NCBI GenBank assembly: GCA_963802385.1
Contig: CAWDIO010000008.1
Coordinates: forward strand, 242,755-306,754
DNA length: 64,000 bases
Source: an uncultured Acidimicrobiales bacterium
GTDB taxonomy: Bacteria; Actinomycetota; Acidimicrobiia; Acidimicrobiales; VFJN01
Direction: 5' to 3'
Shown here: one piece after another, positions 42,027-46,549 of the stretch
Layout: every line of letters begins with the position of its first letter
How positions within the stretch are numbered: position 1 is the first letter of the stretch
Program-made: the position numbers and the translations under genes
The notes under the pieces: model-generated
What the model saw: the letters and a program-made list of their open reading frames with translations, nothing else
The model's database searches: none
Told to the model about the DNA's origin: nothing

Positions 42027-43160
42027 TCACCCGTGCTGCCGCGCCGGGCCGCGCTCGTCGCCGGTGACCGCGGGGCGCAGCACCCACAGGGGCACGCGGC
42101 CGAAGTCCTTGAGGTAGCGGGGGCGCATGGATCGCAGCCGGTAGCGCTGGTCGCCGGCCAGCTCGTCCCGCAGGGCCTGGTTGACCACGATGGTCCCGGG
42201 GAAGGCGACGCCGGTGATGCGGCTGGCCAGGTTGACCGTCGGGCCGTACAGGTCGCTCTCCCGCTCCAGCAGCGGGCCGTAGGCCAGCCCCACCCGCAGG
42301 TCGGACAGGTCGTCGATGTTCCGGGCGCCGGCCGCCAGGGCCAGCGCGATCTCGGCCGCGGCCCGGGGCGCGTCCACCGTGAACATGACCTCGTCGCCGA
42401 TCATCTTGACCACCCGGCCGGCCCGGGCCGTGACCGTGTCGTAGGCCAGTTGCTCGAACTGGTCGAGGATCGAAGCCAGCGTCTCGTCCCCCACCTGCTG
42501 GGACAGCGCGGTCCAGCCCACCAGGTCGGCGAAGCCCACGACCCCGAGCTGGCCCCGTCCCGACTCGGCGATGGTCAGCCGGCGACGCACGGCGCTGAGC
42601 AGGTGGCGGCGCCACGCCGCCTCCAGCACCCGGGGCACGACGGGCAGCAGCGCGGCCGCGCTGGCCACGATCTGCTCGTCGGTCACCGGGCGCCCGCCCA
42701 CCTCGCCCCGCTGCGGGGAACCGCTCACCCGGGCGCTGATGACGTCGACCTGCGACGAGGCCACCCGGGACATGGCCGAGCCGATCACCCGGCTCATGTG
42801 CAGCACCAGGTCGTTCGCGGCCGGGGTGGCCCCCATGAACTGCCCGATCTGGGCGAGCAGCTCGACGTCGGTCTCGGTGAAGGCCACCTCGCCGGGGCGG
42901 GGCACGGGGTAGCCCAGCATGCGCCAGAGCTTGCCGATGTCGGCCGCGCCCAGGCCGGTGCGCTCCGTGACCGCCTCCAGGTCGTAGGCGGGGGCCGTCG
43001 GGAGGATCAGCCGCTCCACGGCCAGCAGCGGCAGCGTGCCCTCGCGCTGGGCCGCGTCGAGCTCGTCCTCGCTGACGCCCTGGGCGGCCAGCAGCTCCCG
43101 GACCACCTTCACCGCGTCCTCGCCGAGCGCCGCGGGGTCGAGGCCCGGGGGCGGGCTCAC
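42027..43160 (-). CDS. class III adenylate/guanylate cyclase domain protein
   Basis: C-terminal 377 aa of ORF 42027..45335 from VSPPPGLDPAALGEDAVKVV; catalytic domain LGVVGFADLVGWTALSQQVGDE...VVKMIGDEVMF...GLAYGPLLERESDLYGPTVNLASRI; GTG overlaps upstream glycosidase stop (GTGA). Confidence 0.85.
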   Translation of the reverse strand: MSPPPGLDPAALGEDAVKVVRELLAAQGVSEDELDAAQREGTLPLLAVERLILPTAPAYDLEAVTERTGLGAADIGKLWRMLGYPVPRPGEVAFTETDVELLAQIGQFMGATPAANDLVLHMSRVIGSAMSRVASSQVDVISARVSGSPQRGEVGGRPVTDEQIVASAAALLPVVPRVLEAAWRRHLLSAVRRRLTIAESGRGQLGVVGFADLVGWTALSQQVGDETLASILDQFEQLAYDTVTARAGRVVKMIGDEVMFTVDAPRAAAEIALALAAGARNIDDLSDLRVGLAYGPLLERESDLYGPTVNLASRITGVAFPGTIVVNQALRDELAGDQRYRLRSMRPRYLKDFGRVPLWVLRPAVTGDERGPARQHG

Positions 43161-45544: not shown

Positions 45545-46549
45545 TAGCGCATGCCGTGCATCTCGGAGCGGGCGTCGCGCCGCAGCAGCCCGCGGTAGGC
45601 CTCGGTGGCGGGCATGCCCTCGTGGACCACGTGGTAGATCTCGGTGGCGATCGGCATCTCGACGCCGTACTGCTCGGCCACCTCCACCACCACCTTGGAG
45701 GTCTTCACCCCCTCGGCGACCATCTTCATCTCCGCCACGACCTCGTCGATGGTGCGGCCCTTGCCCAGCTGCTCGCCCACGTAGCGGTTGCGGCTCTGGC
45801 GGGAGATGCACGTGGCGACCAGGTCGCCCATGCCCGCCAGCCCGGAGAAGGTCAGGAGCTGGCCGCCCATGGCCATCCCCAGACGGGACAGCTCGGACAG
45901 GCCCCGGGTTATGACCGCGGCCCGGGTGTTGTCCCCGGTGCCGAGGCCGTCGGCCATGCCCGACGCGATGGCCACCACGTTCTTGAGCGCCCCGCCCACC
46001 TCGCACCCGATGACGTCGGGGTTGGTGTAGACCCGGAACAGCTCGCTGGCGAAGATGCGCTGCAGCTCGGTGGCGATGTGGTCGTCGGAGAAGGCCACGA
46101 CCGTGGCGGCGGCGTTGCCCGCGAGGATCTCCTTGGCCAGGTTGGGCCCGGTGAGGGCGCCCACCGGGTGGCCCGGCAGCTCCTCGCTGATGACCTGGGT
46201 CATGCGCAGGTGGGTGCCGACCTCCAGGCCCTTGGCCAGGCTGACCACCGGCACCCAGGGGCGCACGTGGGCCGCCAGCTCCTGCAGCGTCGAGCGCATG
46301 CCGTGCGAGGGCACGCCCATGACCAGCACGTCGGCCCCGCTCACCGCCTCCTCCAGCGAGGCGGTGGCCACCAGGGCCTCGGGCAGGTCGAAGTCCGCCA
46401 GGTACTCGGAGTTGCGGTGGTCGCGGGTGATCTCCTCCGGCCAGCCCGGGGCTGCGCGCCCACAGCACGGTCGGGGCGTTGCGGCAGGCGAGCGTGGCGA
46501 CCGTGGTACCCCACGACCCGGCGCCGATCACGGCGACACGGATGGGCAT
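45544..46549 (-). CDS. gpsA: NAD(P)H-dependent glycerol-3-phosphate dehydrogenase, apparent frameshift near 46430
   Basis: ORF 45544..46371 (C-terminal 275 aa, [31 protein letters not shown]) plus N-terminal Rossmann [21 protein letters not shown] found in another frame up to ATG 46549. Confidence 0.9.

Follow-up and report, generated by a model that had tools for sequence, protein, structure and literature searches.

A translationally overlapping operon, in which gpsA is followed by the gene of a large six-hairpin (GH15-like) protein and by an Rv1264-type adenylate cyclase gene, was found to be a lineage-wide feature of Acidimicrobiia, and it is neither a recent insertion nor a catabolic island. 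The explanation that we favour, tentatively and with somewhat less than even confidence, is that it constitutes a membrane glycerolipid/glycolipid homeostasis module with a cAMP output, whose substrate and mechanism are putative. The operon was recognised in the window, i.e., the whole stretch of 64,000 nucleotides analysed from an uncultured Acidimicrobiales bacterium.

Operon organisation and neighbouring genes

Three consecutive coding frames, recognised by their GC3 phase, run on the minus strand: gpsA (45544..46549), encoding an NAD(P)H-dependent glycerol-3-phosphate dehydrogenase with a repaired product of 334 aa; the six-hairpin gene (43157..45544; GTG start at 45544), encoding a cytoplasmic protein of 795 aa from an unnamed family; and the gene of an Rv1264-type class III adenylate cyclase of 377 aa (42027..43160; GTG start at 43160). 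At the first junction (TAGTG), the gpsA stop codon TAG (45544-45546) shares 1 nt with the GTG start of the six-hairpin gene, and at the second (GTGA), the stop codon TGA (43157-43159) and the cyclase GTG form a 4-nt overlap. The G+C content of the operon matches that of its flanks, with no compositional sign of insertion, and scans of the window DNA (77% G+C) found no promoter or terminator.

The co-directional genes and both overlaps, already pointed out in the preliminary description, were borne out; gpsA, however, is not a single open frame. Its ATG at 46549 does not share a frame with its stop at 45544, and there is an in-frame stop at 46530. The frame break is due to one extra G at 46437/46438, revealed by direct comparison with three close relatives (L001-L003). 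As sequenced, the gene carries a +1 frameshift at 46437/8, and both GpsA domains are strongly matched with frame repair, the repaired protein hitting Pfam NAD_Gly3P_dh_N (163 bits) and NAD_Gly3P_dh_C (192 bits). In a neighbouring GH38 gene, the frame is interrupted by an additional C around 40342 relative to the same relatives. Both single-base insertions are probably assembly errors, with a true pseudogene as the alternative for gpsA. These frameshifts were located by direct comparison, the whole-window GC-phase survey being too noisy to count them.

Divergently from gpsA lie cofC/fbiD (46632..47234, plus strand; Pfam CofC, 73.5 bits) and a PIG-L family deacetylase gene (47234..47968, plus strand; Pfam PIG-L, 99.9 bits), the latter also supported by GC3 phase and translation; the sequence TGATG contains both the stop codon of cofC and the overlapping ATG of the deacetylase gene. 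The same pair was found at loci L167 and L169. A 362-aa ORF beside cofC was rejected as spurious: it is an artefact read from the antisense strand of the PIG-L gene. The gpsA-fbiD synteny with mycobacteria (Rv2982c/Rv2983) noted in the preliminary description is probably correct; a literature search on these two genes together yielded nothing useful.

On the other side, an APH-fold kinase gene (40918..41913, minus strand; Pfam APH, 63.7 bits) follows the cyclase at a distance of 113 nt. Its position beside the cyclase is limited to the closest relatives (L001, L003, L006, L169), and it is a variable accessory gene outside the conserved core. It had been compared with maltokinase-like sugar kinases, a likeness that was not sustained, since the Pfam match was the generic APH and no sugar-kinase model matched; NCBIfam gave weak, mixed matches (APH(3'), thiamine kinase, homoserine kinase) and no maltokinase. 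Next comes the GH38 alpha-mannosidase gene (38280..40917, plus strand), convergent with the operon and carrying the Pfam GH38 N, middle and C domains. Both of its ORF pieces match NF007331 (mannosylglycerate hydrolase), its best NCBIfam model, at 361.6 bits against an MngB equivalog cut-off of 1138. Its proposed role in solute catabolism is not supported: generic GH38 domains are present, but the gene falls below the MngB cut-off, is convergent and lies behind variable genes.

The Rv1264-type cyclase

The cyclase catalytic domain (residues 208-351; 42108..42539, minus strand) matched PF00211 at 38.5 bits against a cut-off of 21.9. A phmmer comparison with the Rv1264 holoenzyme (PDB 1y10_A) gave an E-value of 1.7e-17, with residues 17-367 aligned to 29-380, and in this alignment D212, K252, D256, R289, D303, N310 and R314 correspond to Rv1264 D222, K261, D265, R298, D312, N319 and R323. 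These seven catalytic residues are invariant in 118/118 homologues. The sequence thus carries the class III set of two metal-binding Asp residues, a substrate-specifying pair of Lys and Asp, and Asn/Arg residues for the transition state, and the early assignment to class III adenylate cyclases holds.

The N-terminal domain (residues 1-195; 42576..43160, minus strand), previously considered of unknown type, can now be assigned to the autoinhibitory regulatory domain of Rv1264, on the basis of fold comparison and of the full-length Rv1264 match. It is all-helical, with a MerR-like sub-fold, and homologues match PF16701, although the window copy's own N-domain falls below the Pfam threshold of that model. 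When the N-terminal half alone was searched against PDB, as sequence or profile, Rv1264 was not recovered and the matches were weak ones to MerR-type HTH proteins. A public protein (P0121) is identical to the window cyclase, and no contig is on record for it.

Rv1264 and Rv2212 of M. tuberculosis (PDB 1Y10, 1Y11, 2EV1) are pH-sensing, fatty-acid-binding class III adenylate cyclases. Acid-pH activation and fatty-acid binding are known for both; in Rv1264, oleic acid is held between the regulatory domain and the catalytic one, and oleic acid activates its relative Rv2212 (PMC12505454). The window cyclase differs from Rv1264 in its regulatory domain, which retains just 18-19% identity, and in the translational coupling of its gene to the six-hairpin gene and gpsA. 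We know of no description of such gpsA/six-hairpin coupling for Rv1264.

The six-hairpin protein

The 795-aa protein was modelled with confidence as a beta-sandwich, an (alpha/alpha)6 barrel and a second beta-sandwich. On the minus strand, the N-terminal beta-sandwich (residues 106-303; 44636..45229) was delimited from model secondary structure, the barrel (residues 378-678; 43511..44413) from the model and family-wide loop motifs, and the C-terminal beta-sandwich (residues 679-767; 43244..43510), which is followed by a disordered tail, from model secondary structure and pLDDT. No membrane segment was found. The barrel loops carry FWFRD(376-380), EWD(420-422), SAEH(481-484), WDD(493-495), R554/D557, WPE(645-647) and GDGHHGW(659-665), motifs kept down to 29% identity in the family, and the xWxRDxA motif noticed at the outset is present as FWFRDAA at residues 376-382.

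The relationship to GH15 is visible in the fold and remote in sequence. The predicted N-terminal beta-sandwich and barrel, the arrangement of prokaryotic GH15 members, align to bacterial GH15 structures over 537-548 residues (1lf6, 1ulv, 9ju0). The protein had no Pfam match at E<=0.01, GH15 and GDE_C included, and PF00723 stayed below threshold against ten divergent family members (best E 0.047), so that GH15 membership is not supported by sequence model. The sole significant family match was the GH15-type TIGR01577, at 29.8 bits against a cut-off of 820.7 (E 2e-7), which indicates a remote sequence homology to GH15-type proteins. PDB searches with the protein, as single sequence or profile, returned nothing significant (best, the GH125 protein BT3781, E 0.32), and no canonical GH15 gene that could serve as a bridge was found in the DNA of the retrieved loci. 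Of the three families first put forward, GH15 thus stands by its fold and not by its model, whereas GH63 and GH116 found support in neither models nor nearest fold. A glycogen-debranching (GH133/GDE_C) identity was likewise set aside, the protein having neither a match to the amylo-alpha-1,6-glucosidase model nor the corresponding nearest fold.

In A. niger glucoamylase, the catalytic Glu pair comprises E179 as the acid, in a WEE motif, and E400 as the base. By loop order, WDD(493-495) and WPE(645-647) would be the equivalents of the GH15 catalytic Glu motifs; D494 is kept in 220/239 family members and E647 in 207/239. A direct hhalign comparison of the family profile with the A. niger enzyme (sequence identical to 3eqa_A) was not significant (probability 0.07%).

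The family is very large, with at least 4,354 clusters at 50% identity in multiple phyla and from 30% to 75% G+C. No family model existed among those searched, no named member or paper was found, and the cluster names of the divergent members were uninformative. The glucosylglycerol hydrolase GghA/Slr1670 was considered as a relative and dropped, as it belongs to another family, GHL5.

Conservation in Acidimicrobiia and gene context elsewhere

Among related loci, gpsA is directly upstream of the six-hairpin gene on the same strand in 67/73, with the junction overlapping or within 10 nt in 45/64, and cofC is divergent upstream of gpsA in 61/65. The cyclase follows the six-hairpin gene directly in 45/72 loci and is absent from 27/72; where the two meet, the six-hairpin stop and the cyclase start form a 4-nt overlap in 34/46 loci and are no more than 10 nt apart in 44/46. 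A convergent GH38 gene was found within 10 kb in 33/40 loci. The arrangement reaches relatives whose 795-aa protein falls to 54% identity, and its recurrence in dozens of species-level genomes places it above chance. The glycosidase-cyclase pairing is therefore conserved beyond this genome, as the preliminary description had required for its proposal to stand. That the pair was inserted into a gpsA-fbiD context is contradicted by its flank-like G+C, by the wide distribution in Acidimicrobiia and by a housekeeping backbone of surrounding genes (AlgH-like, HIT, PhoH, Lut, PPK2, ThiL, PIG-L).

Outside this lineage, the context was counted at 86 loci of the divergent branch, spanning 30-75% G+C. 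A GT4 glycosyltransferase gene occurred within 3 genes of the six-hairpin gene in 54/86 loci, a PF01553 acyltransferase in 30/86, and one or more of GT4, acyltransferase and patatin in 61/86, the usual order being six-hairpin gene, acyltransferase and GT4, with 4-nt overlaps. The neighbouring GT4 matched alpha-monoglucosyl-diacylglycerol synthase best, along its full length (E 2e-43), and the acyltransferase matched acyl-ACP-phospholipid O-acyltransferase best. The GT4-linked branch lacks the cyclase, and no GT4 or acyltransferase was found near the Acidimicrobiia copies; a WS/DGAT gene adjoins the operon at L167. In one divergent case, a GH57 branching enzyme gene immediately precedes the six-hairpin gene, and DUF4912 and GT4 genes are nearby. 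A literature search on the six-hairpin gene in glycolipid operons found nothing useful. The family-wide context points to glycerolipid/glycolipid genes and not to compatible-solute genes.

The putative active site is not universal in the family. In 53/239 full-length representatives, per-residue counts indicated the loss of at least two of six core residues, a figure that alignment error could inflate among the most divergent members, and these form a sub-branch without the putative active-site residues; none of the core residues is missing from the window copy or from any of the 80 best genome loci. All three operon genes, the Rv1264-type cyclase gene among them, persist in 4/4 motif-degraded loci examined, and no catalytic residue of the cyclase is lost in the three with a checkable domain (L169-L171).

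Proposed function and competing explanations

The GpsA product, sn-glycerol-3-phosphate, is the backbone of glycerolipids and the substrate of the PlsC-type class of acyltransferase. In the glycerolipid/glycolipid module that we tentatively propose, GpsA would supply this backbone; the six-hairpin family would most likely act on a glycolipid built on glycerol, or on a precursor of it, by binding or cleaving the sugar head group; and the cyclase, whose catalytic domain would be held off by the N-terminal regulatory domain, which in M. tuberculosis contains a fatty acid and is pH-responsive, may convert lipid or pH state into cAMP. In this way, the operon would tie the supply and remodelling of membrane glycerolipids/glycolipids to cAMP signalling. 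We infer the substrate class and the hydrolase activity of the six-hairpin protein, its physical or regulatory link with the cyclase and the responsiveness of the window cyclase to lipid or pH.

The lipid link rests on gene neighbourhood, and part of the gpsA synteny may be inherited and not functional, because gpsA is a housekeeping gene in a conserved backbone. The nearest folds, those of GH15, act on soluble alpha-glucans. Also counting against the glycolipid reading are the GH57 neighbour of one divergent member, the lack of a membrane segment in the six-hairpin protein, the absence of GT4 and acyltransferase genes around the Acidimicrobiia copies, the absence of the cyclase in 27/72 loci, the failure of the catalytic residues to map onto GH15, the sub-threshold Pfam score of the window cyclase's N-domain and the gpsA frameshift in the assembly.

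The six-hairpin protein might instead be a common cytoplasmic exo-alpha-glucosidase of GH15 type, similar to glucoamylase, trehalase or debranching enzymes, that works on a glycogen-type glucan or trehalose, its synteny being inherited and without functional meaning. This reading would agree with TIGR01577 as the sole significant family match, with the GH57 neighbour and with the housekeeping neighbourhood. We regard it as unlikely, since Pfam GH15 and GDE_C did not match, the frequent 4-nt cyclase overlap argues for co-expression, and the dominant partners elsewhere are lipid-type GT4 and PlsC-type acyltransferases and not glycogen genes; moreover, retention of the operon by the motif-losing sub-branch is unexpected for a simple metabolic enzyme.

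That same retention, together with the residue losses themselves and the stoichiometric co-production implied by the stop/start overlap, would suit a six-hairpin protein that serves the cyclase mainly as ligand sensor or scaffold, with catalysis secondary or dispensable, much like the inactive glucoamylase-like domains in phosphorylase kinase. This, too, appears improbable: the window copy and the 80 best loci keep all core residues, the apparent losses are possibly inflated by misalignment, and the cyclase-free loci and cyclase-free GT4 branch imply a family role independent of the cyclase. A more specific version, in which the family is a glycolipid/carbohydrate-ligand sensor directly controlling the Rv1264-type cyclase, an enzyme in many lineages and a pseudoenzyme in the sub-branch, is in our view rather doubtful.

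Very improbable, finally, is the originally proposed inserted island for the catabolism of a compatible solute (mannosylglycerate, glucosylglycerate or trehalose type), coupling glycosidase, GH38 and APH-fold sugar kinase to cAMP: the best NCBIfam model of GH38, its recurrence within 10 kb, the full layout including APH at L169 and the six-hairpin fold shared with GH63 glycosylglycerate hydrolases speak for it, but GH38 scores far below its cut-off (362 against 1138 bits) and is convergent with variable genes between, the APH gene without sugar-kinase match is beside the cyclase only among the closest relatives, and no recurrent transporter or sugar regulator, nor any compositional sign of insertion, accompanies an operon with housekeeping neighbours and a lipid-type family context.

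Relation to known systems and significance

Compared with prokaryotic GH15 enzymes (glucoamylase 1LF6, glucodextranase 1ULV, dextran dextrinase 9JU0 and the GH15-related 5Z3A), the six-hairpin protein shares 12-17% identity, would have Asp-rich WDD and EWD where GH15 has WEE, and has, in addition, a beta-sandwich at its C-terminus and a conserved extension of 100 residues at its N-terminus; its family has lipid genes as partners, and not starch or glycogen genes. The domain plan recurs in GH116 (GBA2-type glucosylceramidases), GH94, GH65, GH78, GH133, GH125 and MmpH. GH116 is a precedent for a beta-sandwich plus six-hairpin architecture acting on a glycolipid head group. In phosphorylase kinase's alpha and beta subunits, the glucoamylase-like domains are inactive. 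Those D1 domains are eukaryotic and fused into large kinase regulatory subunits, whereas the six-hairpin protein is a separate bacterial protein that keeps its motifs in most copies and has a putative cyclase partner.

For annotation, these results mean that gpsA and GH38 bear probable single-base frame errors in this assembly and that the ORF beside cofC should be disregarded. If the doubtful direct-sensor version were true, the operon would couple glycerolipid-backbone synthesis (gpsA) to cAMP via a GH15-like regulatory module. It would then parallel, in bacteria, the glucoamylase-like regulatory domains found in phosphorylase kinase and represent a novel kind of class III cyclase input. The physiological signals of the Rv1264-type class are poorly defined, even in M. 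tuberculosis. Since the coupling outlasts the loss of the glycosidase motifs in all four motif-degraded loci examined, these cyclases may have a novel regulatory input. Through its operon partners, a very large glycosidase-fold family gains a testable hypothesis of function, in glycoglycerolipid metabolism.

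Operon structure and frame breaks

Since the G+C content of the window is about 77% and open reading frames are present in all frames, real genes were picked by the phase of third-position G+C, which placed three consecutive coding frames on the minus strand (42027-43150, 43157-45500 and 45544-46400), those of a 377-aa class III adenylate cyclase (42027-43160), a 795-aa six-hairpin protein (43157-45544) and gpsA. Both stop/start junctions of the preliminary description were read directly in the sequence. The G of the gpsA stop codon at 45544-45546 (CGC TAG TGG) is also the first base of the 795-aa gene, whose GTG start at 45544 is backed by N-terminal alignment with homologues. 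The cyclase gene, which starts with GTG at 43160, and the 795-aa gene, whose TGA stop occupies 43157-43159 (GGG TGA GCC), have 4 nt in common. Pfam confirmed gpsA (once repaired), the class III cyclase domain, the APH-fold kinase (40918-41913, minus), GH38 (38280-40917, plus) and CofC (46632-47234, plus, divergent from gpsA).

The identity of gpsA is well supported, but its reading frame is broken: the ATG at 46549 opens the frame of the Rossmann segment (which includes LWARSPGLA), and the remainder shares its frame with the stop at 45544. Aligned with its three closest relatives (L001-L003), the window has one extra G at 46437/46438 (GCCGGAGGAG versus GCCGAGGAG). GH38 is likewise split, by one extra C at about 40342-40343, and base-by-base comparison with the same relatives revealed these two as the only uncompensated intragenic frame-breaks at 38.3-48.0 kb. 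Each duplicates a single base, and gpsA is not a gene that is normally dispensable; assembly errors are thus the probable cause.

Conservation in Acidimicrobiia

Scanning a single genome for each species turned up a relative in 204 genomes; the best 80 are all Acidimicrobiia MAGs (54-88% identical). Among the loci that could be judged by tblastn, gpsA lies directly upstream on the same strand in 67/73, cofC is divergent upstream in 61/65, the cyclase follows directly downstream in 45/72, and GH38 is convergent within 10 kb downstream in 33/40; thus, the pairing does recur in related genomes. Of 46 loci, 34 have a 4-nt overlap between the six-hairpin and cyclase genes, and in 44 the two lie no more than 10 nt apart; gpsA and the six-hairpin gene overlap or are separated by at most 10 nt in 45 of 64. 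That the operon is real, conserved and co-translated is well supported.

The preliminary description suggested that the glycosidase-cyclase pair was an insertion and the region a compatible-solute catabolic island. However, the conserved order, the unrelated housekeeping nature of the other recurrent neighbours (AlgH-like, HIT, PhoH/PIN, Lut-type, PPK2, ThiL-type and acyl-CoA dehydrogenase) and the uniform G+C throughout the region show that the arrangement is old, shared across the lineage and set in a stable backbone, not an island; in such a backbone the proximity of GH38 carries little weight, and neither proposal is supported. The APH gene was found nearby only in L001, L003 and L006 in the tblastn synteny counts, and the position after the cyclase is variable, since in several relatives a luciferase-like monooxygenase stands there instead of the kinase (L038:13612-14697, L073:13568-14554). 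In the Acidimicrobiia locus L167, a C69-peptidase-like gene, not a cyclase, directly follows the six-hairpin gene.

On the far side of gpsA, coding phase and Pfam identified a PIG-L family deacetylase (47234-47968, plus), its ATG start overlapping the stop codon of cofC (TGATG); the two genes are paired again in L167 and in L169, a locus discussed below. The minus-strand ORF at 47069-48157 is spurious, an antisense artefact of high G+C, the coding phase being on the plus strand. A nucleotidyltransferase with NTP_transf_2 and AadA_C matches occupies about 48060-48890 (minus), after which the coding phase shifts to a different minus-strand frame (48896-49645); the change within 48060-49645 could reflect two genes or another frame break.

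The six-hairpin protein

The 795-aa protein had no Pfam match, and no sequence relatives in the PDB even by profile search. In NCBIfam it matched one model alone, the GH15-type "oligosaccharide amylase" (E 2e-7), with 29.8 bits where the cut-off is 820.7. The family comprises more than 2,000 word-indexed homologues, every one labelled hypothetical, and at least 4,354 representatives at 50% identity (E<=1e-3); ten divergent members likewise stayed below every Pfam threshold, although several six-hairpin families left faint traces in the search.

The predicted model was confident (pLDDT 80, pTM 0.83), with a conserved but poorly predicted helical N-terminus, a beta-sandwich (residues 106-303) followed by a linker, an (alpha/alpha)6 barrel (378-678) and a C-terminal beta-sandwich (679-767). 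The best fold matches were GH15 or GH15-related: dextran dextrinase 9ju0 (30.2), 5z3a (GH15-related, 29.3), bacterial glucoamylase 1lf6 (29.0) and glucodextranase 1ulv (28.5). These were followed by 3cih (GH78, 27.4), the archaeal debranching enzyme 7vma (GH133, 26.9), 7qsj (MmpH, 26.6), 3qpf (GH125, 26.2), GH94, GH65 and GH116 structures (22-23) and YgjK, 3d3i (GH63, 19.5). This ranking does not support the GH63 or GH116 classes that had been considered. Therefore, "GH15-like" is a fair description of the fold, although GH15 membership is not established; that this large unnamed family has a GH15-like fold is well supported. Profile comparison of the family with the A. niger glucoamylase (sequence identical to PDB 3eqa_A) was not significant, and the order of the barrel loops suggests FWFRD (376-380) as the counterpart of the GH15 WxRD motif, WDD (493-495) of WEE, the motif with the general acid, and WPE (645-647) of the general-base loop.

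The cyclase

The cyclase N-terminal domain had been considered of unknown type. The full-length protein aligned with M. tuberculosis Rv1264 (PDB 1y10_A; residues 17-367 versus 29-380, E 1.7e-17), and its seven canonical catalytic residues, matching Rv1264 D222, K261, D265, R298, D312, N319 and R323, are invariant in 118/118 homologues. The N-terminal half searched alone had no PDB match, gave weak matches to MerR-type HTH proteins as a profile and did not match PF16701, a model matched by 13 of 16 homologous N-terminal halves. This domain is the Rv1264 autoinhibitory regulatory domain, and the Rv1264-type identity of the cyclase is well supported.

Glycerolipid-type neighbours of the wider family

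More divergent members (29-41% identical) keep all loop motifs and are not beside gpsA. A metagenome scan with their alignment found at least 575 loci, of which the best 80, together with six fetched earlier, were analysed by clustering the neighbours and scanning them against Pfam. These 86 loci span 30-75% G+C. A GT4 glycosyltransferase lies within three genes in 54 and a PF01553 acyltransferase, mostly immediately downstream, in 30; 61 have a GT4, an acyltransferase or a patatin-like phospholipase. Typically, the six-hairpin gene is followed by the acyltransferase and then the GT4, with overlaps of 4 nt. For the GT4 the best match, covering the whole protein, was alpha-monoglucosyl-diacylglycerol synthase (E 2e-43, under the equivalog cut-off), further matches being GlcNAc-phosphatidylglycerol synthase and lipoteichoic-acid glycolipid-anchor glycosyltransferases. 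The acyltransferase best matched acyl-ACP-phospholipid O-acyltransferase and, as read from its sequence, has an LGIDSL motif like that of ACP as well as a single hydrophobic helix.

Operons that join the family to this ACP-fused PlsC/Aas-like acyltransferase and monoglucosyl-diacylglycerol-synthase-like GT4 occur in many phyla (L087-L166, e.g., L109:2994-4451, L164:6349-7647), and patatin-like phospholipases, phosphodiesterases and two-component genes recur near these loci. In contrast to most other loci, L084 has an alpha-glucan-type context, the divergent member coming directly after genes for a GH57 branching enzyme and a DUF4912 protein (L084:4303-5886, L084:3168-4247), with a GT4 nearby.

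In L167, a convergent wax-ester synthase/diacylglycerol acyltransferase (DGAT, 8430-9920) lies one gene downstream of the six-hairpin gene. The gpsA neighbourhood in Acidimicrobiia and the PlsC-type acyltransferase and lipid-type GT4 elsewhere are two independent contexts that point to glycerolipids, and a role of the family in glycoglycerolipid metabolism is moderately supported by this context.

Loss of putative active-site residues

Six core residues were scored (R379, D380, D422, D494, E647 and D660), and 53 of 239 full-length family representatives, about a fifth, are without at least two of them. Most motif-degraded representatives are 39-56% identical to the window protein; the GT4-linked branch, more distant from it, retains the core residues. 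Degraded copies are absent from the 80 best genome loci, a sample biased because it was partly chosen by a pattern containing the first motif.

In all four degraded loci examined (L168-L171) the six-hairpin gene still lies between an upstream gpsA and a downstream Rv1264-type cyclase, with overlapping junctions wherever both gene ends are visible; the catalytic residues of the cyclase are preserved in the three loci in which its catalytic domain could be checked. L169 repeats the full layout of the window, APH and GH38 included. The cyclase of L170 (L170:3015-5012, 665 aa) has about 285 extra C-terminal residues without Pfam match.

These motif-degraded proteins resemble the glucoamylase-like domains of phosphorylase kinase alpha and beta, which are without detectable activity (PMC10978961). 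Motif loss in a kept operon, together with this resemblance, raises the possibility that the six-hairpin protein also regulates the cyclase, direct regulation being speculative. These findings give a very large, uncharacterised family of glycosidase-like proteins a concrete functional hypothesis, and they single out the six-hairpin protein as a possible new input to a class III cyclase.
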